DNA from: a virus | DNA: 32,754 nt | Virus genome (UHGV): UHGV-0097046 | Direction: 5' to 3' (one strand) | Shown here: piece after piece, positions 1-31,723 of the stretch | Numbering within the stretch: the first letter of the stretch is position 1 | Layout of the letters: the number at the start of each line of letters is the position of its first letter | Translations under genes and position numbers: made by a program | Notes under the pieces: generated by a model | Database searches by the model: none | Told to the model about the DNA's origin: nothing | What the model saw: only the letters and a program-made list of their open reading frames with translations

Positions 1-26
1 TGTGCAAACCTAACCTAAACTTACTA

Positions 27-51
27 GGGACTCTTCGAAGTCCCTTTTTTT
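27..51 (+). terminator. Hairpin gggact-cttcga-agtccc followed by TTTTTTT; candidate intrinsic terminator for transcription entering from the left
   Basis: 6-bp perfect stem plus T-run read directly from sequence; abuts stop of the convergent minus-strand ORF 50..292. Confidence 0.5.
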
Positions 52-292
52 ATGCAACAATTCGAAGTGTAAGTTTCTTATGTTGTGTAGGTTTAGTTTC
101 ATTTCGCCACTCAGGGAATACATGATCCATCATAACCGCATTAGTCTCATCAATCAGCTTTAAGGACTTTCTCAACGCCTTATTATCAGCTTTAAGTGTT
201 TTAATCTCTGATTCCATCGCTACCATTCTTTCTTTCATTTTGGTAATTTCTAACATCAGATTACCCAGAAATTCTTTGTTTTGATTCATCAT
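50..292 (-). CDS. Hypothetical small coiled-coil protein (80 aa)
   Basis: ORF with GAGGTGA Shine-Dalgarno-like sequence upstream of ATG; heptad-like K/E-rich sequence; no recognisable family. Confidence 0.5.
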   Translation of the reverse strand: MMNQNKEFLGNLMLEITKMKERMVAMESEIKTLKADNKALRKSLKLIDETNAVMMDHVFPEWRNETKPTQHKKLTLRIVA

Positions 293-307
293 AAATTCAC
301 CTCTCTA

Positions 308-1303
308 TTAAGCTGCGTATGCGTAGGCGCTGTAGTTGGTGTCGTAGATAGCGTCATGCAGTGCCATCTGTGCTTCGCGGATCTCGTCTTCGTTTACTTC
401 AATCTCTTCTTGTTCTTCTTCGGTATCTTCCCAAGTGGTTTTGAATTTAGCCATAAAGTTATTGCGCAGGGATTCAAAGTTAGTAACAGGTGCGGATTCT
501 TCTTCAACTTCAACCGGAACAACTACCGGAGCAACTTCTTGTTCTACTTCTGCAACAACACCCCAGCGATAGTTAAGGAGTTCTTCCAGTTCTTCATCAA
601 TGGATTTTTCTTCAACTGCTTCAACTTCAACCGCTGCTACTTCGAAAGTGGTTTCCTGTGCTGCCAGTTCAGCTTTCAGAGATGCGTTTTCAGCTTCCAG
701 TTCAGCGATGCGTGCTTTCAGTGCTTCAACTTCGGAATATTCAACCACTGCAACTTCTTCTTTAACTTCTTCAACTACTACCGGAGAAACTTCTTTCTGT
801 GCTTCTTTTTTGCAGAAGAAGGAGGAAGTAACCTGTAATGCGTGGTTGTAGAAGGAACCGCCTTTAGCGGTGTTAACAGTACCAGAAACATCCTTTACAG
901 TGGATTCGGTAGCAACAGTACGGAAGCGTTTTGCGACTTCCTGGGTCTCTACGCCGTATTCGTTACGTTTGCTCTTGTGATGCATTACAGCACGGAAGCC
1001 GGAAGCCGTTTTAACAACAGCCAGATAGTAAGTTTCATCAGCTTTAACAGCACGAGCGAAGCAATAAACGGATTCACCTTCTACCAGTGTAGGTTTAACG
1101 TGACGTTTGTCGAAACGGTTGGTGATCTGCCATTCAGCACCGTCTTTGATGCCAGCATTTTGACGCATTTCGGTCAGAGTCTTACCTGATACTACTTCAA
1201 AGGATTTGTCTTGTTTGCTTGCTTTACCTTCCATGACAGTGATGTTCAGTTTGCCGTTGGATTTAATAAACATGTTGAAGGTAATGCGCTTAGAATTTTT
1301 CAT
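308..1303 (-). CDS. Hypothetical early protein, 331 aa, globular N-terminal domain plus coiled-coil and strongly acidic E/V-rich C-terminal half
   Basis: Long ORF, AGGAG RBS 7 nt upstream of ATG; EALKARIAELEAENASLKAEL coiled-coil; long acidic tail; function not recognisable from sequence. Confidence 0.6.
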   Translation of the reverse strand: MKNSKRITFNMFIKSNGKLNITVMEGKASKQDKSFEVVSGKTLTEMRQNAGIKDGAEWQITNRFDKRHVKPTLVEGESVYCFARAVKADETYYLAVVKTASGFRAVMHHKSKRNEYGVETQEVAKRFRTVATESTVKDVSGTVNTAKGGSFYNHALQVTSSFFCKKEAQKEVSPVVVEEVKEEVAVVEYSEVEALKARIAELEAENASLKAELAAQETTFEVAAVEVEAVEEKSIDEELEELLNYRWGVVAEVEQEVAPVVVPVEVEEESAPVTNFESLRNNFMAKFKTTWEDTEEEQEEIEVNEDEIREAQMALHDAIYDTNYSAYAYAA

Positions 1304-1351
1304 ATAAATACTCCTGAATGCTCTGTGTTAGTTTAATTGTTCATATCAAAA

Positions 1352-1381
1352 GCCTCCTTGCGCCAACAGGGAGGCTTTTTT
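1352..1381. terminator. GC-rich hairpin (gcctcc...ggaggc) with T-run on plus strand and T-rich flank on minus strand; intergenic terminator/attenuator between leftward genes
   Basis: 9-bp stem (with one G-U) read from sequence, TTTTTT immediately 3'. Confidence 0.45.
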
Positions 1382-1419
1382 ATTTTTAAAGCCATCATAT
1401 AATTCTCAGTGAAAGGTTA

Positions 1420-1602
1420 TTACCAGACCTCGGCGGTAATCTTTACTTTAATGTCATACTTCTTTAAGAGTTTGTGGAAGGTTGATTGATCAATACCTTC
1501 ACCTTTAAACCATTCACCCATCACTACATCAGGTGTCAGTTCAAAATAACGCTTTGCCATTTCTAAAACGATTTCACGAGTGAACTTAACAGGTCGTGCC
1601 AT
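1420..1602 (-). CDS. Small Hin/resolvase-type helix-turn-helix DNA-binding protein (60 aa)
   Basis: GGAGG RBS; motif ARPVKFT...GIDQSTFHKLLKKYDIK paralogous to ORF 4638..4871 and to the C-terminus of ORF 4904..5497; resembles the DNA-binding domain of Hin-like recombinases (basic arm followed by HTH). Confidence 0.55.
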   Translation of the reverse strand: MARPVKFTREIVLEMAKRYFELTPDVVMGEWFKGEGIDQSTFHKLLKKYDIKVKITAEVW

Positions 1603-1704
1603 CTTATATCCTCCTAAATCTGGAATAATGATTTCTTAAAAAAGAGCTTTTCGCTCTGAACAATTCTATTTATAAAATGTTTTTCGAAAAACCCTGTAAA
1701 ACCA

Positions 1705-1720
1705 CTGTATATCCGATCAG
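1705..1720. promoter_or_regulatory. LexA-like SOS box candidate (CTGTATATCCGATCAG)
   Basis: CTG-N10-CAG with CTGTAT left half; lies ~5 bp upstream of a candidate leftward -35 (TTTACA) for the 1420..1602 gene. Confidence 0.4.
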
Positions 1721-1789
1721 TGGGAGCACGAATTGCTAAAGAGAAGATTAATAATTAATCAATTCGTACATTATTCAATCGAATAAGCA

Positions 1790-1823
1790 CTGTATGTTTA
1801 GCCAGTGCTGTATGAATTAACAG
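1790..1823. promoter_or_regulatory. Two adjacent LexA-like SOS boxes (CTGTATGTTTAGCCAG and CTGTATGAATTAACAG)
   Basis: Both fit CTG-N10-CAG with CTGTAT left half; the second matches about 14 of 20 positions of the E. coli consensus TACTGTATATATATACAGTA; adjacent arrangement as in colicin-type double SOS operators. Confidence 0.45.
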
Positions 1824-1960
1824 TGAATCAGGGGATTTTCAGAAGTGAACAATCATTTTCATGCATGTATTTATACACGAAAAAATCTTGCGTATCATCA
1901 ATATGTGGATTGTTTCGAAAATTTCAACCCCTACCAACGAGAAAAAGTATAAAATAATCC

Positions 1961-1974
1961 TTGACAGTTGTCAA
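1961..1974. promoter_or_regulatory. Inverted repeat TTGACA-gt-TGTCAA, operator-like palindrome containing a -35-like hexamer
   Basis: Perfect 6-bp arms with 2-bp spacer read from sequence. Confidence 0.35.
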
Positions 1975-2000
1975 TACACTTGATCTAAGCGAGAAATGAC

Positions 2001-2167
2001 TATCAAAATTTTTGTGTGAAAATGGCGGATAACGATTATCAACCTTTATAACCTATTATAGCACGGCGACCTTTTGATGATTCTTTTTAAATCATGCATT
2101 TACAGCGGTTTTTGGTGATTTTCTGGTTAAATAATATACAAGAATTTTCTATCAAAATTTTTGATGA
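2001..2167. repeat. Two copies (~150 bp apart) of an ~18-bp element cTATCAAAATTTTTGnnGAAAA containing the palindrome TCAAAA-T-TTTTGA
   Basis: Copies at about 2001-2020 and 2150-2170; second copy is a perfect 13-bp palindrome; candidate dimeric regulator binding sites. Confidence 0.4.
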
Positions 2168-2170
2168 AAA

Positions 2171-2272
2171 ACCTACACTACAAACCTACGCTTTAAAGGG
2201 ATTGGCCTACACTACACTAGCCAGTAAACCTACACTATAACACCTACACACCTACACTAACCCTACACTTCA
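2171..2272. repeat. Array of about seven direct CCTACAC(T) heptamer/nonamer repeats (iteron-like)
   Basis: Occurrences near 2172, 2185 (variant), 2206, 2229, 2243, 2251, 2264 with irregular 8-23 bp spacing in a non-coding stretch. Confidence 0.5.
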
Positions 2273-2615
2273 ATCTCATAAGTGTATGATCTTGAAAGAC
2301 ATTTCACCACACAGACCATAGAATATAAAATTCGAACTAACGTTCTCCTTTTTGCTCGTTTTCTCTCACTACGTTCAAGAAAGATCTCGCAAAAAGAATA
2401 CGGCGTAGCCGTGCGCGAAGCGCCCATCAACACCTTCTAAGACCTGCAAGCAGGATTCGAAAGGGATTGGATAGTTCGCTTCGCTCACGTTCACACCTAC
2501 GGCGTTCACTCGCTTTTGAAAGGATTTTCTCAGAAAGGGATTTAATACTAGTTACTAACTGATTCTAGTAAACGAACGAAGTGAGTAACAATCACTTTCT
2601 AGAAAGGTATTGGTT

Positions 2616-2645
2616 ATCCCTTCGGGATTGCAACCTTCGGTTGCC
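2616..2645 (+). other. Two adjacent stable hairpins with UUCG tetraloops (atccc-TTCG-gggat; gcaacc-TTCG-gttgc) in the leader upstream of the rightward early genes
   Basis: Stems and tetraloops read from sequence; candidate RNA processing or stabilising structure or part of a small RNA. Confidence 0.35.
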
Positions 2646-2844
2646 AAATTGCTTCCTGATTATTATTTCTCCAAAAGAAAGATTCTTATATTCTAAAGAT
2701 ACTTCTTCGTTTTGATGATGATTTATTCAAAATCTATGAAGGAGGGCTTTGCCCGACTGAATACAATCACCTTTCATAATAACAAGAATTTTCTCTTTAT
2801 AAATAATATTAGATTGATTCACTTTCTTTTAGAGAATTTCCACT

Positions 2845-3312
2845 ATGAACCACAAGATGACTACCACTACTCCTTTTATCCTTCTGGGTCTGGATTCTGA
2901 TAGCTTCCACAATGACAAGTTAATGAAGATGTTCCGTGAACGTGGTTATAACATCCTTTTCAACTCTGATGAATCCCATTTCTCTAGTGCATGGTATGCG
3001 TTTTACCGTAATAAGAAGCCGACCATTGTTGTTAACGTCTTCACCGATGAAGAACGCTTAAAGTACCAGGATCTACCAGCAATTATTGTTCGTGATGATC
3101 TTCCGTTTGAAGTCCGTTCCGGTGACATTGACCTGGGTAGCTTCGTTACTGTCTATGAACTGGATGAAGCAATGTTTAACTACGGCAAAGAAACCGCTCA
3201 GGAAGCCCCAGAAGAAGATGAACAAGACGAAGATGACGACGACTACGCACCAATCTGTTTTTCTTCTCAGAATGGCTTCTACGGTTACGACGAAGGCTTA
3301 GATATGCTGTAA
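2845..3312 (+). CDS. Hypothetical early protein (155 aa) with acidic C-terminal tract (EEDEQDEDDDD)
   Basis: ORF from track; no strong RBS, start uncertain (alternative ATG at 2857); function not recognisable. Confidence 0.4.
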   Translation: MNHKMTTTTPFILLGLDSDSFHNDKLMKMFRERGYNILFNSDESHFSSAWYAFYRNKKPTIVVNVFTDEERLKYQDLPAIIVRDDLPFEVRSGDIDLGSFVTVYELDEAMFNYGKETAQEAPEEDEQDEDDDDYAPICFSSQNGFYGYDEGLDML

Positions 3313-3348
3313 GTTAGGTCAACCCCTTGGCGTCTTGTCAAGGGGGCA

Positions 3349-3377
3349 TTGACAAAAATTTCTGACTTTTTTATGAT
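3349..3377 (+). promoter_or_regulatory. Sigma70-type promoter: -35 TTGACA, 17-bp spacer, -10 TATGAT
   Basis: Consensus -35 and 5/6 -10 at canonical spacing, located upstream of the small ORF at 3436 and the Rha-family gene; preceded by a 7-bp-stem hairpin at 3323-3345. Confidence 0.55.
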
Positions 3378-3435
3378 TATCGCACTTGACAACTTTGATC
3401 CTATTTGACCTAGATTTGTAAAGAGGATGTTAATT

Positions 3436-3582
3436 ATGAACACTACTAAGAAAATTGATGGACGTAAAACCCCGAACCGCAAACCGTGGACCCCAAACCT
3501 GAATTTCTCAATGGTTGACTTCCATGAACGCCAGCGTCGCATTCAAGAAGAAATTGATCGCGCGATTGCTGAATCTAAATGA
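3436..3582 (+). CDS. Small basic protein (48 aa), not in ORF track (below length cutoff)
   Basis: ATG 8 nt downstream of AAGAGGA RBS; translation MNTTKKIDGRKTPNRKPWTPNLNFSMVDFHERQRRIQEEIDRAIAESK; preferred over the overlapping minus-strand ORF 3285..3542. Confidence 0.4.
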   Translation: MNTTKKIDGRKTPNRKPWTPNLNFSMVDFHERQRRIQEEIDRAIAESK

Positions 3583-3673
3583 GATAAAAACTTCTTATAA
3601 ATAAAATTGTTCCGGTGATGCTGCCGGAACTAGGAGGACCAAATCACTAAACCGTTTAAGGGGAATTTTTACT

Positions 3674-4489
3674 ATGAATACTGTTACTACTATGAATACT
3701 GCTATTAAACCTGCTTCCGTGTCTCTGGTTGTTGATAACACCAAACCGCTGACCATGTCTTCTCGTCAGATCGCTGAATTTACCGGAAAAGAGCATAAAA
3801 ACGTTAAACGTGATATTAAATCCATGCTCGATGCTCTGGAATTAGATGTGCTCAGTTTTGAGCGCACCTATCTTGATCAGTGTGGACGTGAACAAACCGA
3901 ATATCACCTTGACGAAGAAATGACGCTGACTCTTGTCACTGGTTACGATGTTAAGCGTCGAATGATCGTTATTCAGGAATGGAAACGACTGAAAGAAGAA
4001 AATGAAAAACTGCGTCAGGAACGTTTAGCCGTTAACCCGTATGCAGACTTTGAAGAAACCGACTGGATCGAACTGGCGTTAAAGAAAACTCGTGAAAATA
4101 AAAAGCTGATTGAACTTCATGTTCGTAAGTCTGTAGACAGCCATTCAATGACACGTCTGTTAGGCGCTAAAAAGGGCGCTACGAAGGTTAAAGAAGCACT
4201 GACGGCCTTACGTACTGCTGGATACATTGAGCGCGTCTATGATGAAAATAACAAGCCGTGTGGGTATGTTGCTAATGACTCTTCTCTGTCTTTCTGCCGC
4301 ATGAATGCTCACTACCAGCTTGAGTTTACTGTTGATGTGCTTCCGGTGCTGGTTGAATTGGGTGTTCTGGAAGAAGAACAAAAAGCAACTCTGAATCTTC
4401 CTAAGCCGAACAACACTATTCTGATTCAAAATAAAGCGGCTGAACGTCTCCGCCAGAATGTTGGATCACTGGAAGTCTTCGGACTGTAA
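3674..4489 (+). CDS. Rha-family phage regulatory protein (antirepressor-like N-terminal domain) with unknown C-terminal domain
   Basis: N-terminal motif LTMSSRQIAEFTGKEHKNVKRDIKSMLDALE matches the Rha domain signature (...IAE.TGK.H.NV.RDI...); AAGGGGA RBS; ends with TAATAA. Confidence 0.7.
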   Translation: MNTVTTMNTAIKPASVSLVVDNTKPLTMSSRQIAEFTGKEHKNVKRDIKSMLDALELDVLSFERTYLDQCGREQTEYHLDEEMTLTLVTGYDVKRRMIVIQEWKRLKEENEKLRQERLAVNPYADFEETDWIELALKKTRENKKLIELHVRKSVDSHSMTRLLGAKKGATKVKEALTALRTAGYIERVYDENNKPCGYVANDSSLSFCRMNAHYQLEFTVDVLPVLVELGVLEEEQKATLNLPKPNNTILIQNKAAERLRQNVGSLEVFGL

Positions 4490-4497
4490 TAATTTTT

Positions 4498-4522
4498 AGC
4501 CTCGCCTCGTGCGGGGCTTTTT
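4498..4522 (+). terminator. Intrinsic terminator (agcctcgc-ctcgt-gcggggct + TTTTT)
   Basis: 8-bp stem with one G-U, 5-nt loop, T-run; same hairpin design as terminators at 11823 and 17766. Confidence 0.65.
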
Positions 4523-4637
4523 CATACCTACATCACGCGACTTTTCGCGCCATCTTCCACCAACTCGCCGATGGCGTTTTGGACAACCCTATAGATACAA
4601 AAAAGCCACTCCGAAGAGTGGCAAAGAGAATCAAAAC

Positions 4638-4871
4638 TCAAAAACCTGTTGCTTCTACGATCTGACCATCACCGATCTGAACATAGAATTTAATGTCTAA
4701 CTTCTTCATATTCTTATAGAATTGGGCAATTGAAATCCCATGTTCACTAAGAATCTGTTCTTTCGCTTCCTTACCACGATCCGCTGTATAATAAGCGTAG
4801 GCAATATCAGCCATTTGTTCAGCGTTAAAACGGGCAGGACGACCGCGAGTAGCTTTAGTAGTCATAGTCAT
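4638..4871 (-). CDS. Small Hin/resolvase-type HTH DNA-binding protein (75-77 aa) with N-terminal GRP basic arm
   Basis: TKATRGRPARF...GISIAQFYKNMKKLDIK; paralog of 1420..1602; GGAGA RBS suits the second ATG (start about 4865). Confidence 0.55.
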   Translation of the reverse strand: MTMTTKATRGRPARFNAEQMADIAYAYYTADRGKEAKEQILSEHGISIAQFYKNMKKLDIKFYVQIGDGQIVEATGF

Positions 4872-4903
4872 TTCTCCAAATTAAAGTGAATGTTCACTTT
4901 TAT

Positions 4904-5497
4904 TTAGAGTGACTTACATTTTATCGGAAAAAGTTCTCCATCGTCAACCGACATAAAGAACTCTGCCTTAATCCCGTACTTCTTCAACCGTGAATAGTAT
5001 GTACCCCGACTTATATCAACCTTGCGAAGCACTTCAAAGAAGGATTTAGGATCGTTGTAATAGTGGCTGTACTTCACGTTAGCGAGTTCAACGAATAGTT
5101 CCCTTGTATCACCATAGCCTTTCTTGAAAGCCTCGTTACGATAGCGTGTAATAGCGTGATTCAATCTCTTCTGTTTCAACACTTCTCGGATCGACTTCCA
5201 CTGCAACCGATAGATAGGACCGTCATCAATGCGATAATAACGCTTGATATCAAAATCAAACCAATCTCGGACTCTCCGAAACTCTGTATGTGATGTTCTA
5301 TGCTTCTTAAAGAAGTTGTGAATATCGGTATACCCATGATCGCGATACAACTCGATTAAAATCTCTTTCGCTTCTTCGCGACTAAAACCGGATGTAGTGT
5401 AATCGGTCTTTAAGTGCTTATGTTTTACTGGCAAACGATATTCATGATCGGTACAAGACAAGGCTAATTCATCTCTTTCTTGCTGATTAATTAGCAT
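4904..5497 (-). CDS. Hypothetical protein (197 aa) with C-terminal Hin-type HTH-like segment
   Basis: Strong AAGGAGGG RBS; C-terminal ISRGTYYSRLKKYGIK resembles the HTH of the two small paralogs; divergent from terminase gene. Confidence 0.6.
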   Translation of the reverse strand: MLINQQERDELALSCTDHEYRLPVKHKHLKTDYTTSGFSREEAKEILIELYRDHGYTDIHNFFKKHRTSHTEFRRVRDWFDFDIKRYYRIDDGPIYRLQWKSIREVLKQKRLNHAITRYRNEAFKKGYGDTRELFVELANVKYSHYYNDPKSFFEVLRKVDISRGTYYSRLKKYGIKAEFFMSVDDGELFPIKCKSL

Positions 5498-5583
5498 ACA
5501 CCCTCCTTAAATCTTAATACCGTATTTATCAAAATATCAACAATTTAATAAATACCTTCATATTTCGTAATGAGGGTAATTAC

Positions 5584-7488
5584 ATGAAACTGATTTCTAA
5601 TAAGGCAAAATTAAAAAAGATTCTCAAAAATATCTCTGCTGCAATTCGTCCACCTAAAACCATGAAACCTAGCGAATGGGTAGAGGCTAATGTAGTTGCG
5701 ACCGATGGTGTTAAAGCCGGATCGCTAATTAAATTGCATCCCTTCCAACGTGGAATGATGGACGCGATCACCGAAGACCGTAGAAAAATTGTGTTTAAAT
5801 GTTCGGCACAGTTGGGTAAGACCATGATTCTTAACGGAATTATCTTCCATCGGATCGCGAGTAACCCTACTAATATCGGGGTGTTGCAATCGAATGTCCG
5901 CGAGTTGAATAGCTGGATCGCTGGTAAGGTGAAGCCAGTATTAGAGGCAACACCAGAATTAAAGGCGATGATCACCGACAAATCAGATCGCAATGCCGTT
6001 AACAACTCATCGATTATTCAGCTTCGTAACGGATCGTTTATGTATTTCATGTCGTTGAATAGTCCGTCACATCTTCGCGGTAAAACACTCCCTTTGATTA
6101 TTCTTGATGAAGTTGATGCGGCTGATGAGTCAGACGAAGGGAACCCGATCCAGCTAGCGGAACAACGCGCAACCACTTTCGGGGAAGATGCAAGGATCGT
6201 AATTGCTTCCACTCCAACCGCTCGTGATGGGGCGATTAACCAACAATGGGAACTCTCGGATAAGAGAAAATATCATGTCGTTTGCCAGCATTGCGGACAC
6301 AAGCACGTAATGGAATGGAGTAGAGTTTTCTTTGATTGGCATACGATTAACTGTAAATCACTGCCGAATCCAGATACTGCCGTTTATCGTTGCCCGTCAT
6401 GTGAAACTGATTGGACAGAAGGGGATCGCCTACGTGCTGTTGCTCAAGGTGAATGGATTGCTACAGAACCAAATGCGGAAGTAATCGGTTTTCATGCTAA
6501 CCGCCTTATGTCTCCGTTTAGTTCTATCCGTGCGTGTGTGGTGGACTTTGCTGATAGCTACGCGAATATGTCACTAGCAACGTTCTACAATACAGTCCTC
6601 GGTGAAACCTTCGATGATCTTAACGAAGATCGCACAGCCGACGAACTGGAAACGCTGAAAACTGATATTAGCCTAGACAATATTCCTGATGATGTACTGG
6701 CTCTGGTAGGTGGAGTTGACCAGCAAAAAGACCGTCTGGAATCTACCTTGCTGGGTATCTCTCGTAAGGGGATATGCGTAGTTGATCACCGATCATTCTA
6801 TGATGTGAACTGCGAACGCCACGAATCACCAGCATATGACCAGCTTTATAACTTCCTGAAAGCGAAATTCTATACCCGATCCGGTGAACGAATCCCGATG
6901 CTATCTGCTTTCGTGGACTCATCGAACGGACGAGCTACAAACGTGATCTACCGTTTTTGCACTAGGTGGCAAAACCTATGCGCCATTAAAGGCGCAAGTA
7001 ATGCTGATGCTCCAATCCTTCCGGCTAAGGACACAAGAACGGGCGGTTTTACTCTCAAAATTCTGGGCGTAAACAACCTTAAGACGATGATCCGTGAAAT
7101 GATTAACCGGAACTTGAGAGATGGCGATCCTCATACTGTCTTCCAGATTGGTGACGTTCCTGATGACTATTGCGAGCAATTGCTTTCTGAACAGTTGAAA
7201 CGGCAGGGTAATACCACACGTTGGGTAAAAGTTGGTCAGCAACGAAACGAGGCTCTCGACTGCCTGGCTTATTCCTATGCTGCTTCTCGCCATGTACTCA
7301 ATAAAATGTCATGGGAAAAACTCGAAGCCATCAAAGATAGTTTGAACCGTGAACCAGAAGAACCCGTAAAAGCTCCTGAAACGCAATCTGACGAGCAAAT
7401 CGAAGAAACTAAGCCAATCACACGACCACAACGTCAAAACATCGCCAGACGCCCAAATAGAGGCCGTAGCTGGGTAACATCGTTCTAA
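5584..7488 (+). CDS. Terminase large subunit, lambda gpA-like
   Basis: P-loop-like CSAQLGKT, Walker B LIILDEVD, and recognisable similarity to lambda gpA segments (EW..AN, PFQRG.M.A, HCGH zinc-ribbon-like, TVLGETF, RNEALDCLAYSYAA); first gene of rightward late operon. Confidence 0.88.
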   Translation: MKLISNKAKLKKILKNISAAIRPPKTMKPSEWVEANVVATDGVKAGSLIKLHPFQRGMMDAITEDRRKIVFKCSAQLGKTMILNGIIFHRIASNPTNIGVLQSNVRELNSWIAGKVKPVLEATPELKAMITDKSDRNAVNNSSIIQLRNGSFMYFMSLNSPSHLRGKTLPLIILDEVDAADESDEGNPIQLAEQRATTFGEDARIVIASTPTARDGAINQQWELSDKRKYHVVCQHCGHKHVMEWSRVFFDWHTINCKSLPNPDTAVYRCPSCETDWTEGDRLRAVAQGEWIATEPNAEVIGFHANRLMSPFSSIRACVVDFADSYANMSLATFYNTVLGETFDDLNEDRTADELETLKTDISLDNIPDDVLALVGGVDQQKDRLESTLLGISRKGICVVDHRSFYDVNCERHESPAYDQLYNFLKAKFYTRSGERIPMLSAFVDSSNGRATNVIYRFCTRWQNLCAIKGASNADAPILPAKDTRTGGFTLKILGVNNLKTMIREMINRNLRDGDPHTVFQIGDVPDDYCEQLLSEQLKRQGNTTRWVKVGQQRNEALDCLAYSYAASRHVLNKMSWEKLEAIKDSLNREPEEPVKAPETQSDEQIEETKPITRPQRQNIARRPNRGRSWVTSF

Positions 7489-13498: not shown

Positions 13499-16400
13499 AT
13501 GCAATCAATCCAATTTAAACGCACACAAACGGCTGGTAAAAAACCAACGCCGGAACAATTATCACAGGGTGAATTGGCTATTAACCTTGCTGATCACGTT
13601 CTGTATACCAAAGATAAAAATAACGCAGTAGTTCAAATCTCTGTTTCTCCAGAAAAACACGCTGAACTTAACACGAAAGTAGACCAGAATAAAACTAGCA
13701 CTGACCGTGTTATTGCTTCCAACAAACAAGAGGCCGCTAATAATCTGGCTAGTGTTAAAGCTGAACTGAATCAGACTATTACCGCTAAAGACACCGCAAC
13801 CAATAAGCGCATTGATGCTACCAACACCACTGTTAGTAACTTAACCCAGACAGTTACGGCAAATAAAACCGATGCCGACACTAAGATCAATAACCTTACG
13901 GGGACCGTATCTGCGAATAAGACCGCAATTGAAAGAACCGTTGCCGCAAACAAATCTGATGCAGATAGCAAACATGCAGCTTTAACGAAAACGGTCACTG
14001 ACAATAACACCGCGATTAACAACAAGGTTAATACCACTAACACCAACGTTAGCAACTTAACTAAAACTGTTACTGCAAATAAAACCGATGCAGATAACAA
14101 AATTTCTAGCTTAACTAGCACGGTTGCAGCTAACAAAACAGCGATTGAAAAGGTCGTTTCCGACAACAAGAAAGATGCTGATACTAAAATCAGTAACCTT
14201 ACTGGCACTGTGAATAGTAACCATACCGCTATTAACAACAAGGTAGACCAGAACAAATCATCGACCGATGCCGCAATTACAGCCGCCAACAAGCGAATTG
14301 ATGGTATTGAAGGTAGTGCTAACGCAGCATATATCAAGAAGAACACAAAGACCTATCACGGCGCGTATTTGTATAGCAAGACTGGTAACTATCTGGAAGA
14401 TTCAACCGCGAGAGATCTTAATTACTTCGGTGCATTCCGTACCAATGGTCAAGATGGACTCATGGATCTAACCCTTAACGTTCCTCACTCTTCCGGTAAA
14501 GCGCATGGTCGAGGATTTACTTTCCGTTATGCGTCTGGCGGATCTCGTGTTGAAACCTATGGTTTTGATGCTCAGGGACAAAAAGCGTTTAGCTATAAAA
14601 TGTATCACGAAGGGGATAAACCGACTCCTGCTGAAATTGGCGCATATACCAAAGGCGAAATTGATAAGATGTTTATTAAAAATGTCACAATGTCTGTTCC
14701 TTCTGGTAGTGAATCCCGTGCTTATTTCAAGATTGCTACGGCTACGATCCCACAAAATGGTCGTATGGTAATGCTTCGTATCTTCGGTGGTAATGGTTAT
14801 AACGTTAACTCCTATGATCAGGTTGATTTCCTTGAAATTGTTATCCGTTCCGGTAACAATAACCCGAAAGGCGTTAGTATTGCTGCTTATCGTCGAAACT
14901 CTTTGAACGTTCATCAAGTATTTGCGGTTAATACTTCCGGTGATAACTACGACATTTACGTTAACTACGGTCGTTATACTGATAACGTTATTGTCGAATA
15001 TGGTAAGACTAGCGGTGTTTCACTGACTGTTCATGACACCCCAGCTATGACTAACGTTAAGCCGTCTACTGGTGTTACAGATGGACGTGTTATTACAATG
15101 TTCAACACCGAAAACAAGGCCGGAACGTTGATGTTTGATAATAACGGACAGGGTACATATGATATTGTCAGTTTGAATAACGATTCAGGTACTGGTAAAA
15201 AATATCTTCGTAAATTCCGTAGTAAAGCCGCAGAAACAATCTGGCATGAAACTGTTCAAGGTAACGTTTATCGTTTAGCGACTGGTACTACCGATTCTAG
15301 CGAAGTTCTACGAATCACTGGTCGCACCATGTTTACTGGTAAAGGTGTATTTGATGCCGGACAAAACGTTCTTAGATTAGAGCGTCCTAGTAATCAATCA
15401 AACTATATTGAATGGCAAGACCGCCGCAATGGTGCTAATGCTCGTCAAGGTTGGATTGGTTTTGGTAGTGCTGAAACAAATAACTTCCAATGGTATAGCG
15501 ATCAGGGGAAAAACTCATTTCAGCTAGAAGCTAACGGTCAATGCTCTATTACCACTGGTGCAACTAAAATTGTATATACAAACGGCGAGTATGTAGCTGC
15601 TAACTCAAATGCATTCCGTATGATTTACGGCAATTATGGTGCATTTTGGCGCAATGACTCCGCAAAAGTTTATCTTCTGTCAACGGCTGAAAACGATAAG
15701 TTTGGTGGTTGGAATACTTATCGACCATTCATTTATGATCTGACTTCCGGTAACGTTCAATTAGGCGGTGATGGTAACGAAGATGCATTAACGTTAGAAC
15801 GTGCAAGCCGTGCCGCTCGTTTTAGTAATGACGTTTACATTAAGAAAGGTTTTTTGACTTTCGACGCTGGGCGTTCTGGATCGCGTGATTATATTCGATT
15901 TAATCATTGGGGCGATAGCAACAACGCCCGTGATAACGTTTTATACCTCGAAGACAGCAAAGGTCGCCATTTCAGCACCGAACGTAATATGGCTACAGGT
16001 GGACTAAAGGCATATTTCTTAGGTGATCTTGAAGTTGCTGGTCAAATGAGATGGGGTAAGAATACCGGACAATCTAGCTTCAATATTCGTGCATGGGGTA
16101 ATGATACTCGTAAACAAGTATTAGAATGCGCAGATGAAAGCGGCTGGCATTTCTACACACAGCGTGCTGGCGGTCCTGGTACTACCGCAATCGAGTTTAG
16201 CGTAAACGGTAAAATTAACGCTCCCCAACTGTCTATTAGTCAGGATGCAACCATTCCTAAGTTTAATAGCGGTTTTGGTGTTGGTGTTGCTAACGGATTG
16301 GGTGGAAATTCTATTGTTTTAGGCGATAGTGATACTGGATTTAAACAAAACGGTGATGGTGTCCTTGATACCTACGCTAATAACGTTAATGTTGTTCGTC

Positions 16401-29262: not shown

Positions 29263-29535
29263 CTATGATTTATTTTCTTGTTCTATGAAAATCTTTCTCA
29301 CCTCATCAGAATAAATGTCTAGTGATTCCTCATAACATTTTCTGTATTCACCGTAATTACTGGTGGTCTTTTGACATAGCAATTTCAATGTCTTATGTGC
29401 TCCATCAATGAAAGCATCTTCTCTATAGGTTAGCGGTCTACGCATTTCTTGGTCTACGGTTGCCAATGCCAGGCAAGAATTCATAGATAAAATCAAACCT
29501 AAAATCTTAATCATCTTCATTAGCTTAAATTCCAA
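29263..29535 (-). CDS. Small secreted protein (about 83-90 aa) with signal peptide
   Basis: N-terminal hydrophobic segment MIKILGLILSMNSCLALA with AxA-type cleavage site; overlaps recombinase stop by 11 nt (co-transcribed). Confidence 0.55.
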   Translation of the reverse strand: MEFKLMKMIKILGLILSMNSCLALATVDQEMRRPLTYREDAFIDGAHKTLKLLCQKTTSNYGEYRKCYEESLDIYSDEVRKIFIEQENKS

Positions 29536-31219
29536 ATTCTTGTAATGGACCTGGTATTTCTTCTTCTGGTTTCCAGTTCTTATCTGTCAGCATGTCTAAA
29601 CATGGATGCAGAACAAGCCCGTTACTCTCCAGAATCTGCCTATCATTGATAGTCTTCAAATCAACGAAGATCCGGCCTTTCCTCGGTCCTCTTGAATTTT
29701 CTATTACAACTCTCTGGGTCTTGCCATCGATGTATTCCAGTACAAACAAGTTTTTGTACTTGTCAATCCTGCTACACCCGATCCGTTTTAGAGCTTGCTT
29801 AATCTTAAACCGGACCTTAATGCGATCCTCGTTGTAAACATCTTCTAAATCAAATTCTGCGAGCTTCTCCCAGCCTTGAGAGTCAACAGAATACATTTCC
29901 TCTTCTGCCATCTTAATTTGATTGTAGAGTGTTTCACGCTCGCTATTGAGGGTAGTAATCTGATCGGCTAGCTCCTTCGTTGCTCCTGTCATAGCAGAAA
30001 GGGTAATCAGGTTATCAATCTTGCGTGATATTTCATCAATCTGTACTTTCAAAGCCGGAACCGGATTAGCCTTATCTTCAGCAATCCAGATTTTATCAGC
30101 CAGCAATTGCAATACAGCTTTCTCTAATTGGTCGCCGCGAAAACTCCAGTTTGTATGCACACATTCAATACGACTAGAGCGCATTGCATCGCATGAATAA
30201 CGATATTGGTTAGGCCGTCTGTTTGTTCCTTTCACCTTAACCATAGCGGAACCGCAATGTTCACATTTCAATAGACCAACACCACTAAGCAAGGGAATAG
30301 GTTTAACTTCTTCTTTGTCTCCAAAGTTACATGCTCTAACACCAATGCTTTTCTTAAGGTGATAAAACTCAGCGTCATCTAGCACACGAGGATAATAATC
30401 CTTTAACTCATACTTAACGCCATCTACAGAGATTTCCTTGATACCAATCAAAGCGCGGGTATGGAACAACCTTTCAATCATTGCCCGTGACCAGTTTGAA
30501 TGCCTCTTGTGACTTGCGGCTGGTGGTGGTGTGTATGTCGCGTTAAGGTGATCCAGTATCTCGGCGGTTGACCGTCCATTCCTGCGTAATTCCACAACTT
30601 CCTGAACAATAGGGAAGAAGACCGGATGAGGAAGCACATAACCAGATGTGGTATCAGTCCACCACATATTCTTTCCAATTTCCTCGATTGCAACAGCCGG
30701 ATTTTGTGGATTTTCTTGATGAGCTTTAATCTTAATCAGTGCGCTTGAGTTAGTACGATTGCGCTTAGTCTGGCTTTCCTCATTACCACGGATGAATAAA
30801 AGGATGGAGAACATCAGGTCCATCGGGTTAGCGGTAACAGTATCCAGCGAGTAGATCTTGTTATCCATGCCAGTAACAATGGTTATCCCCCTACGGATGA
30901 TTGAAAGGAATAACTCCTGCGCACTGACAATATCGGCACGGGATAAACGGTCCAAGTTTTCGATGAATAGCCAGCTACCAACAGGAACGGATCTACCTAT
31001 TGCATCAAGGAAACGAGATAGCGCCCCTGTTTTGGAGTTAGCACCCTTAAACGCAGATACACCCAGATCCTGATAATCATTTACCAGTTCAAGGTCATAC
31101 TTTACCGCAATCTCTCTAGCCATCCTGATTTGTCGTTCATAACTCGAACCATCATTCTGACGCATAGACGAGAAGCGAATATACGAATACAGTTTAGTTT
31201 TCATACCATTTCCAAACAA
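29525..31219 (-). CDS. Large serine recombinase (serine integrase/resolvase family, 559-564 aa)
   Basis: N-terminal catalytic domain motifs YIRFSSMRQ (active-site Ser) and DRLSR; large C-terminal region with Cys-rich zinc-ribbon-like segment (CEHCGSAMV...YRYSCD...ECVH) and coiled-coil; track start is TTG at 31219, alternative ATG at 31204. Confidence 0.85.
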   Translation of the reverse strand: MFGNGMKTKLYSYIRFSSMRQNDGSSYERQIRMAREIAVKYDLELVNDYQDLGVSAFKGANSKTGALSRFLDAIGRSVPVGSWLFIENLDRLSRADIVSAQELFLSIIRRGITIVTGMDNKIYSLDTVTANPMDLMFSILLFIRGNEESQTKRNRTNSSALIKIKAHQENPQNPAVAIEEIGKNMWWTDTTSGYVLPHPVFFPIVQEVVELRRNGRSTAEILDHLNATYTPPPAASHKRHSNWSRAMIERLFHTRALIGIKEISVDGVKYELKDYYPRVLDDAEFYHLKKSIGVRACNFGDKEEVKPIPLLSGVGLLKCEHCGSAMVKVKGTNRRPNQYRYSCDAMRSSRIECVHTNWSFRGDQLEKAVLQLLADKIWIAEDKANPVPALKVQIDEISRKIDNLITLSAMTGATKELADQITTLNSERETLYNQIKMAEEEMYSVDSQGWEKLAEFDLEDVYNEDRIKVRFKIKQALKRIGCSRIDKYKNLFVLEYIDGKTQRVVIENSRGPRKGRIFVDLKTINDRQILESNGLVLHPCLDMLTDKNWKPEEEIPGPLQEFGI

Positions 31220-31681: not shown

Positions 31682-31723
31682 AGTAGAACTTCCTCTTGTT
31701 GTTTGAATTACGATATATTTATA

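Follow-up and report, generated by a model that had tools for sequence, protein, structure and literature searches.

The prophage and its control region

The window analyzed here is a 32,754-nt stretch of viral DNA (UHGV virus genome UHGV-0097046) that encodes a lambda gpA-type large terminase, a lambda-family portal, tail proteins and an endolysin, together with a large serine recombinase of 564 aa and a protein of the Rha family. E. coli H2 (NZ_CP028733) carries the complete element as a ~35.1-kb prophage that interrupts hicB, and outside its structural genes the PGAP label is nearly always 'hypothetical'. The prophage was seen in chromosomes of E. coli, Shigella and Salmonella, and the exact 60-aa open reading frame (ORF) beside its control region is encoded in thousands of assemblies, where the neighboring DNA is E. 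coli chromosome; assemblies that encode the 60-aa protein number ~2,600. ETEC4085 (NZ_CP122634) and O55:H7 DEC5A (NZ_CP038394) are further natural lysogens. Megablast of positions 1-6000 against phage and plasmid collections gave no match, the best phage TerL match (the closest isolated phage) has 43% identity, and a literature search found no description of a hicB-integrating prophage with a serine recombinase. The host accessions that carry the prophage were likewise not found in the covered part of the PSOSP supplementary tables. The element is an uncharacterized temperate tailed prophage of E. coli and Salmonella, and this copy was put into hicB by the large serine recombinase. Its family is widespread yet undescribed, the regulatory proteins are all unrecognizable, and the control region is unusually long and non-coding.

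This control region comprises 1.2 kb of non-coding DNA (1.2-1.6 kb across the prophage family), is found in 58 of 5,426 complete E. coli genomes (~1%), and precedes a leftward operon whose 60-aa, 331-aa and 80-aa products have no match in Pfam, PHROG, NCBIfam or the PDB (Table 1). A homology search with the 331-aa protein returned near-identical 'hypothetical' proteins only, and PDB sequence searches with this protein and with the 155-aa product of a rightward gene returned nothing. For the 60-aa protein, the predicted structure is a three-helix bundle (pLDDT 74); a Foldseek search of this model against the PDB gave no significant match, the top non-significant ones were mostly HTH domains, and the protein is predicted to be HTH-like. 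Two paralogues lie in the same phage, one of 77 aa (E = 3e-6) and one in a 197-aa ORF beside the terminase, which contains two repeats (E = 1e-3). Scanning the GTDB representative genomes with a protein pattern taken from the alignment of 60-aa homologues gave no match. We regard this small protein as a candidate for a new switch regulator.

Table 1. Genes, boxes and candidate regulatory elements of the locus, with positions in the window
Feature	Position	Strand	Sequence	Remarks
80-aa coiled-coil ORF	50..292	-		Last gene of the leftward operon
331-aa ORF	308..1303	-		Acidic coiled coil in the middle; lies beyond the terminator that follows the 60-aa gene
Terminator (strong)	1348-1379			Between the 60-aa and 331-aa ORFs
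60-aa ORF	1420..1602	-		First gene of the leftward operon; AGGAGG RBS at 1610-1615
Terminator-like hairpin	1637..1657	-	AGAGC-GAAAA-GCTCT + T6	Precedes the 60-aa gene's RBS by ~20 nt
Proximal TATAAATA element	1667..1674	-	TATAAATA	9 nt upstream of the hairpin before the 60-aa gene; invariant in relatives
SOS box 1	1703-1722 (core 1705-1720)		CACTGTATATCCGATCAGTG (core CTGTATATCCGATCAG)	HI 13.72; weak/borderline
21-mer	1723..1743	-	CTCTTTAGCAATTCGTGCTCC	Directly 5' of box 1; invariant in 16 loci, unique in the window
Perfect palindrome	1746..1760		GATTAATAATTAATC	Between boxes 2 and 1; sole perfect match in the window
SOS box 2	1788-1807 (core 1790-1805)		CACTGTATGTTTAGCCAGTG (core CTGTATGTTTAGCCAG)	HI 10.41
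SOS box 3	1806-1825 (core 1808-1823)		TGCTGTATGAATTAACAGTG (core CTGTATGAATTAACAG)	HI 8.44
Distal TATAAATA(C) element	1868..1875	-	TATAAATAC	Precedes box 3 by 41-42 nt in every type-A relative
Sigma-32-consensus element	1927 to 1901	-	TTGAAA-N13-CCACATAT	CCCCATAT in most relatives
P1, near-consensus sigma-70 promoter	1946..1974	-	TTGACA-N17-TATACT	11/12 positions match; points left at the boxes
Rha/Ant-like gene	3674-4489	Opposite to 60-aa gene		1.85 kb away, behind two other ORFs

Three SOS boxes and their match to the LexA matrix

An SOS box of the E. coli type has a 16-bp palindromic core, CTG-N10-CAG and ideally CTGT-N8-ACAG, with an A/T-rich spacer. The initial annotation had placed three such motifs within non-coding DNA of the window, and their positions are exact: each of the three cores in Table 1 is a CTG-N10-CAG with the left half CTGTAT, and box 3 has the full CTGT-N8-ACAG. 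Boxes 2 and 3 abut, with a center-to-center distance of 18 bp and the dinucleotide TG common to both, and box 1 lies 85 bp off across a conserved core, giving a total span of 123 bp. The non-coding location is also borne out. PGAP annotates nothing under the boxes, and in 31 complete genomes the homologous stretch carries no RefSeq annotation. As possible sources of a small SOS-induced peptide we considered the ORFs at 1805-1957, 1845-1952 and 1861-1983, and rejected them as coding because relatives have frame-shifting indels there.

The location of the prophage in E. coli chromosomes makes this species its host, and the sites are therefore properly measured against the LexA consensus and matrix of E. 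coli. We recovered the Lewis heterology-index (HI) matrix by regression on 140 published pairs of sequence and HI, the potential SOS boxes of E. coli K-12 in the supplement of the PSOSP paper (PMC12527982), with a maximum residual of 3.5e-5; the recovered additive matrix is palindromic. In that paper, verified LexA binders extend up to HI 12.6, verified non-binders begin at 15.5, and the PSOSP cut-offs are 13.2 and 14.8 (PMC12527982). When the boxes are scored with this matrix, as had been proposed, boxes 3 and 2 score like sites with experimentally verified binding (≤ ~12.6), and box 1 is borderline, between the top verified binder and the lowest non-binder.

A matrix scan of the whole window returns boxes 3 and 2 as its best and second-best 20-mers and box 1 in fourth place; the only other 20-mer near HI 15 is at 15568-15587 (HI 13.64, mismatched cores). 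With perfect CTG/CAG cores required, the expected number of such sites per 32.7 kb is 0.014 for box 3, 0.06 for box 2 and 0.37 for box 1, and with core mismatches allowed it is 0.01, 0.057 and ~1.1 per window, respectively. None of 300 Markov-simulated windows held three such sites inside 125 nt. Across the complete prophage (L023), no perfect-core site apart from the boxes reaches HI 15, and no further site has an HI of 13.2 or less. The earlier judgment that the cluster is unlikely by chance is therefore right for boxes 3 and 2 and for the cluster as a whole; box 1 alone is within chance in this window (0.4-1.1 expected), and is backed instead by its conserved position and by stronger orthologues in relatives. 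From these scores, together with the comparative evidence below, we predict that the three motifs are very probably functional operators for the host's LexA.

Conservation of the boxes in related prophages

The boxes are retained in 11 IMG/VR prophages (85-92% identical in the region) and in several NCBI genomes. In a second group of close relatives, the part corresponding to 1650-2172 of the window is swapped for unrelated sequence without an SOS box. More distant relatives in Salmonella and E. coli were reached via homologues of the 60-aa protein (54-88% identical), and they share a gene order of Rha, a ~60-aa ORF, a ~150-aa ORF, 1.3-1.6 kb of non-coding DNA, the 60-aa gene, a ~330-aa ORF and a ~80-aa ORF. 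Many relatives have their boxes at fixed positions relative to the 60-aa gene's ATG, namely -223/-222, -205/-204 and -120/-119. The inner bases of the boxes have diverged, often with a better HI (4.3-7.3), and the best forms are ACCTGTGTAAATATACAGTA for box 1 (HI 5.0), TACTGGTTAAACATACAGTA for box 2 (HI 4.3) and TACTGTAAAAACATACAGCA for box 3 (HI 4.7).

The boxes differ in how constantly they are kept. Box 2 is present, always at -205/-204, in every type-A relative examined (HI 4.3-13.5). Box 1 is always at -120/-119; its Salmonella orthologues differ at 6-7 inner positions and score HI 5.0-10.8, and in two relatives (L004 and L010) its HI exceeds 15. Box 3 orthologues score HI 4.7-11.4, and the box has been lost in some relatives through CTG>CCG (L005 and L006) or CAG>CAC (L029 and L034); box 3 appears to be dispensable. 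In L030 and L031, an otherwise different cassette carries a single near-consensus box, TACTGTATGAATATACAGTA, with an HI of 1.49.

In a column analysis of a 16-sequence alignment (mean identity 77%), 17 of the 18 CTG/CAG columns are invariant, compared with 53.6% of 153 neighboring non-box columns (binomial P = 2e-4), and the inner ten positions of the boxes are less conserved than the background (majority fraction 81% vs 88%). This pattern supports purifying selection on the CTG/CAG cores across the E. coli and Salmonella relatives. Fixed cores with drifting inner bases point to the signature of a LexA operator, rather than to general conservation or to a private phage operator, and this comparative evidence is the strongest argument for LexA operators.

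Promoter-like elements around the boxes

No canonical sigma-70 promoter lies over any box; a scan found no match of at least 9 of 12 positions that overlaps one. The predicted P1, whose -35 lies within the palindrome TTGACAACTGTCAA, has a consensus equivalent in all relatives at a variable distance from the boxes: in the window it precedes box 3 by 114 nt, and in L030 it lies downstream of the box. The boxes are at ~+114 from P1 and at ~+35 from the distal TATAAATA. In the window, five of the six TATAAATA copies are intergenic and point at the next gene, and the proximal copy is a candidate -10 element of a phage promoter. A sigma-54 promoter like that of Salmonella relatives is absent from the window.

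Two conserved elements occupy the core between boxes 2 and 1. The arms of the palindrome at 1746-1760 are conserved and its center is variable in the Salmonella relatives, and it is probably an operator for a dimeric regulator. The 21-mer is a candidate for the -10/start region of a weak leftward promoter or for a regulator site; relatives of it adjoin other operators in type-B loci, as well as the single box of L030, and an exact scan of the GTDB representative genomes for the 21-mer found nothing. The corresponding conserved promoter candidate, (T)TGATT-N18-TAGCAA, has its -10 in the 21-mer and would put box 1 at ~+4 to +23, and its proposed -10, TAGCAA, lacks the conserved T at -7. The same bipartite element stands before the single box of L030 (~+13 to +32) and before other operators in box-less relatives.

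The terminator-like hairpin is retained with different stems in relatives (GAGCG-GTTAA-CGCTC and AGAGCG-AAA-CGCTCT), and its G-U pairs are possible in the leftward RNA only. Alifold supports only this 5-bp hairpin, without covariation, and Rfam gave no match, either at the gathering cut-off or at E ≤ 1. A structure signal over the leftward leader (z = -4.5) was set aside because operator palindromes fold on their own.

Which transcript the boxes may control

We favor the reading that the boxes confer LexA control on transcription of the leftward operon, and that derepression upon DNA damage leads to lytic growth (probability about 0.6). The boxes seem on balance to act leftward for three reasons. 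They keep an invariant distance to the ATG of the 60-aa gene, whereas between them and the rightward 155-aa gene lie 1020 to 1471 nt of mosaic DNA, depending on the relative. In L030, only the leftward promoter candidate fits the geometry, the single box being at ~+13 to +32 of it and at ~-56 to -75 of the rightward candidate. Lastly, the 155-aa and Rha genes have conserved TATAAATA elements of their own, which are identical with or without the SOS cassette.

During lysogeny, boxes 3 and 2, which abut, would each be occupied by a LexA dimer, and box 1 would be bound less tightly. The boxes bracket a 65-bp core containing the palindrome and the invariant 21-mer, and they precede the leftward operon by 100-220 bp, at a fixed distance. 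With LexA in place, transcription to the left would be blocked. One possible target is the weak promoter candidate in the 21-mer, with box 1 just downstream of its start; alternatively, LexA may act downstream of the stronger upstream starts (P1 and the distal TATAAATA), as in phage GIL01. Because P1 lies downstream of the box in L030, simple occlusion of P1 cannot be the general mechanism. Upon DNA damage, RecA-stimulated self-cleavage of LexA would relieve repression, the small regulator and the rest of the operon would be expressed, and their expression would push the prophage to lytic growth. Several observations count against this explanation: the lack of an overlapping canonical promoter, the terminator-like hairpin between the boxes and the 60-aa gene, the borderline score of box 1, the losses of box 3, and the absence of the boxes from about half of the relatives.

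Palindromic boxes carry no strand information, and they might instead control a rightward transcript from the weak candidate TTGCTA-N17-TAATCA (~1733-1761). Its start would fall near 1768, which puts boxes 2 and 3 at ~+20 to +57. Such an RNA would be antisense to the P1 leader, and would either interfere with P1 or read through to the 155-aa, 51-aa and Rha/Ant-like genes, a proposal close to the antirepressor idea of the initial annotation. Both hexamers do lie in conserved blocks, at a fixed spacer length with variable spacer sequence, and the Rha-like protein matches the PHROG 'anti-repressor Ant' families (E = 4e-20). However, the -10 candidate TAATCA has only two of six consensus positions, a mosaic segment of varying length (1.0-1.5 kb) separates the boxes from the first rightward ORF, and the L030 box and the separate TATAAATA elements of the 155-aa and Rha genes fit poorly with it, making rightward control unlikely. 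A leftward start within the 21-mer could also yield a LexA-controlled non-coding RNA of ~90 nt, beginning just upstream of box 1 and ending at the hairpin and T-run (1657-1637), with the 60-aa gene reached solely by read-through. E. coli has LexA-controlled small-RNA/toxin loci, tisB/istR, dinQ and symE, and here a conserved terminator-like hairpin with a U-run stands directly before the RBS. Against such an RNA, which we regard as distinctly unlikely, are the lack of covariation beyond the 5-bp hairpin and of an Rfam match, the short stem with only three G-C pairs, and a body that would consist mostly of a LexA box and A/T-rich promoter-like sequence.

The remaining explanations dispense with LexA acting unaided. 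The palindromes could be operators for a phage-encoded repressor resembling LexA, or sites that LexA occupies only with a phage cofactor similar to gp7 of GIL01. No phage repressor was identified, hence unrecognized DNA-binding proteins exist; type-B relatives hold a different palindrome, AATTGATTGAATATACATCAATT, at the homologous position; and the weakness of box 1 makes binding without help uncertain there. Yet the variation follows the LexA matrix, with fixed cores, a free A/T-rich spacer and HI values reaching 1.49-5, and a private repressor is unlikely to drift towards the host consensus TACTGTATATATATACAGTA, all of which renders this explanation improbable. That the boxes are functionless products of chance is the least credible of these alternatives, and we give it hardly any weight: the expectation for box 1 alone would allow it, but those for boxes 3 and 2, the simulated windows, and positions and cores conserved across species all speak against it.

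The initial annotation had also read the boxes as host SOS control of an early or antirepressor-type promoter. LexA-type boxes in the control region of a prophage with an E. coli host agree with its first half, and the antirepressor half finds no support. The gene at a fixed distance from the boxes encodes the 60-aa protein, which has no family match and is not homologous to a known antirepressor; the Rha/Ant-like gene has its own conserved upstream element, without an SOS box, in addition to its distance. Searches of Pfam, PHROG and NCBIfam with all non-structural ORFs of the prophage and its relatives found no CI, Cro, HTH_3, Peptidase_S24, replication or antirepressor domain other than Rha. 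A non-cleavable CI-type repressor that an antirepressor could inactivate is not recognizable among them, though one with an atypical sequence may be present. Since these ORFs contain neither an antirepressor nor a CI-type domain apart from Rha, and no canonical promoter overlaps the boxes, a link of the boxes to an antirepressor is not supported by the sequence.

A possibly modular control region

The SOS module occurs in 31 of the 5,426 complete E. coli genomes and in 15 of 29 IMG/VR relatives; about half of the relatives have a different cassette without an SOS box. At the homologous positions, these box-less (type-B) relatives, NZ_CP122758 for example, contain two copies of a CTTTAGCAA..GTGCT element, the palindrome named above, TAACA repeats, and a sigma-32-consensus element right before the proximal TATAAATA, and some Salmonella relatives contain a perfect sigma-54-type TGGCAC-N5-TTGCAT. 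Strongly diverged alleles of the 60-aa gene sit behind a nearly identical SOS cassette. As half of the relatives are without boxes, LexA cannot be the operon's sole regulator. The control region appears to be built from interchangeable input modules, among which the boxes probably form a recombining 'SOS cassette'.

A bolder reading, which we put forward as a speculation with rather low odds, is that this prophage family lacks a protein repressor of known type, and that its control region works as a modular board of stress inputs, where cassettes are swapped by recombination before the same small regulator gene. On this doubtful reading, the inputs would comprise the LexA boxes, the other palindromic operator, the sigma-32-type promoter and the sigma-54-type promoter of Salmonella. 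If it is true, then otherwise syntenic prophages would be induced by different host stresses, and in phages with the SOS cassette the host's LexA would directly gate the lytic switch, similarly to GIL01. To our knowledge, such direct gating by LexA is undescribed for tailed enterobacterial phages. Naturally occurring pairs, in which one phage has the cassette and the other lacks it, would allow a clean test of LexA's share in induction.

Comparison with known SOS-controlled systems

LexA represses antirepressor promoters in several temperate enterobacterial phages, including p95-tum of coliphage 186, antC of N15 and the ant genes of Gifsy and Fels-2. The present locus resembles them in that prophage-borne E. 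coli CTGT-N8-ACAG boxes would couple a phage regulator to the SOS response in the same hosts, E. coli and Salmonella. It differs in that the neighboring 60-aa protein has no similarity to Tum, Ant or AntC and no CI-type repressor is found, and in that three boxes are spread over 123 bp, rather than one box over a promoter, without overlap with a canonical promoter. References on the 186, N15 and Gifsy/Fels-2 antirepressor systems are listed in PMC4551915.

In GIL01, a tectivirus of Bacillus thuringiensis, LexA represses the phage promoter P1 via dinBox1 and dinBox1b, which lie downstream of the start, and is aided by gp7 (PMC4551915). Like GIL01, the present prophage has no recognizable CI repressor of the classical type and has small proteins of unknown fold, and its boxes 3 and 2 would match the two adjacent, unequal LexA sites downstream of a strong promoter if the predicted P1 is that promoter. 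In contrast, GIL01 has a Gram-positive host, another LexA motif and a linear-plasmid prophage, no equivalent of gp7 was identified here, and half of the relatives of the present prophage lack LexA sites, so that LexA probably does not maintain repression alone. In CTXphi of Vibrio cholerae, a LexA site upstream of the -35 of PrstA reportedly works jointly with RstR, the repressor of that phage (Kimsey and Waldor, 2009, cited in PMC4551915). A LexA box beside the operators of a second, phage-encoded regulator would be a shared arrangement, for which the palindrome at 1746-1760 and the location of box 1 before the proximal TATAAATA invite comparison. CTXphi, however, is filamentous and has only one box, and its partner repressor is known.

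Operators with several SOS boxes are also known from chromosomes: lexA has two boxes 21 bp apart, recN has three and colicin promoters have two that overlap. The tandem boxes of graded affinity are alike, and the HI values of boxes 3 and 2 fall in the range of chromosomal boxes, which are 8.3 for lexA box 2, 8.8 for uvrD, 9.2 for ruvA and 12.1 for polB (box sequences in Tables S1 and S3 of PMC12527982). The 18-bp spacing with a shared dinucleotide is not classical, and box 1 stands 85 bp away across a conserved core. The 'SOS-dependent prophage' class of PSOSP uses the same criterion, a low-HI box in a prophage promoter region, and with a minimum HI of 8.44, below HIc1 (13.2), the present prophage would be called SOS-dependent; the pipeline is silent on which gene is controlled (PMC12527982). 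LexA boxes in prophages are a well-known coupling to damage induction and pipelines score them routinely, and the core finding is consequently confirmatory. The LexA mechanism itself is of a known kind, and the more unusual part is the prophage family with its modular, non-coding control region.

Composition of the non-coding control region

The control region between the leftward operon and the first rightward gene (1603-2844) extends for 1.2 kb without a conserved ORF, and a long stretch of the same kind, 1.3-1.6 kb there, is present in all relatives. The region is a mosaic of at least three exchangeable segments. When the relatives' loci L066-L072 are compared with the window over 1420-1640, the alleles of the 60-aa gene that heads the leftward operon are just 54-56% identical, while the SOS cassettes upstream are ~92% identical; the hairpin and RBS form the recombination boundary between the two.

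Several candidate promoter and operator elements lie within this mosaic (see table). The palindrome at the leftward promoter P1, for which relatives carry equivalent palindromes TTGAC-N4-GTCAA, is likely the operator of a repressor. In the relatives without SOS boxes (L018, L007 and L015), AATTGATTGAATATACATCAATT is found about -250 from the 60-aa ATG, in place of the consensus LexA box TACTGTATGAATATACAGTA located at -295 in the relative L030. Because the central TGAATATAC is common to both and the arms alone differ, the pair looks like an operator-specificity swap. The sigma-32-type match is kept among the E. coli relatives, immediately precedes the 60-aa gene in the box-less ones, and forms an inverted repeat, GGGGTTG..CAATCCCC. 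The perfect sigma-54-type promoter of the Salmonella relatives is absent from the window.

Locations of sequence elements, gene family members and the insertion site
Feature	Location	Strand	Remark
TATAAATA	1667-1674	-	sequence match in window
TATAAATA	1868-1875	-	sequence match in window
TATAAATA	2798-2805	+	sequence match in window
TATAAATA	3596-3603	+	sequence match in window
TATAAATA	31716-31723	-	sequence match in window
HTH-like family	1420-1602	-	
HTH-like family	4638-4871	-	
HTH-like family	4904-5497	-	
sigma-32 heat-shock consensus match, TTGAAA-N13-CCCCATAT	1901-1927	-	window's version CCACATAT
sigma-32-type match	type-B loci such as L018, L007		about -93 from 60-aa ATG
sigma-54-type promoter, TGGCAC-N5-TTGCAT, perfect	L024-L026 3143-3160; L030-L031 3027-3043	leftward	non-coding control region, Salmonella relatives
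Palindrome TTGACAGTTGTCAA	1961-1974		overlaps -35 of near-consensus leftward P1
hicB insertion and large serine recombinase	L023 6566-6685 and 41850-42161; window 29525-31219	-	

Repeated elements, small HTH-like genes and insertion site

The sequence TATAAATA matches the T4 late-promoter consensus exactly; six copies are present in the window, against 2.6 expected. Five of the six copies are intergenic and oriented toward an ORF 35-71 nt downstream: four of these five precede the genes for Rha and for the 60-aa, 155-aa and 137-aa proteins, and the fifth lies within the non-coding region. The copies preceding the 60-aa and Rha genes are included in a 27-nt inverted repeat (1658-1684/3586-3612, 89% complementary), with a hairpin after each of the two copies. 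These elements may constitute a class of promoter specific to the phage; a gp55-like factor was not found.

Small HTH-like domains of a family private to this phage, with the motif RPxKF...GI..(S)TF.K..KK..IK, have three occurrences in the window. In the 197-aa ORF, which runs divergently from the large terminase gene, the domain is doubled. An Edwardsiella homologue of this ORF has faint Phage_Nu1 and DUF1441 matches, and the 197-aa ORF may therefore be the small terminase.

Integration, presumably by the 564-aa large serine recombinase, splits the antitoxin gene hicB into two pseudogene halves and leaves hicA intact; further prophage copies adjoin ghrA/ycdX.

Candidate functions of the control region

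At 2169-2273, an iteron-like CCTACAC(T) array contains at least four strict copies at 23-34 nt spacing, together with degenerate ones, and is also found in relatives, where it reads GTGTAGG. It may be a replication origin; the prophage has no recognisable replication gene. The lack of a conserved ORF in 1603-2844, together with that of a recognisable repressor gene, raises the possibility that this region could confer RNA-based immunity of the P4/P1 type.
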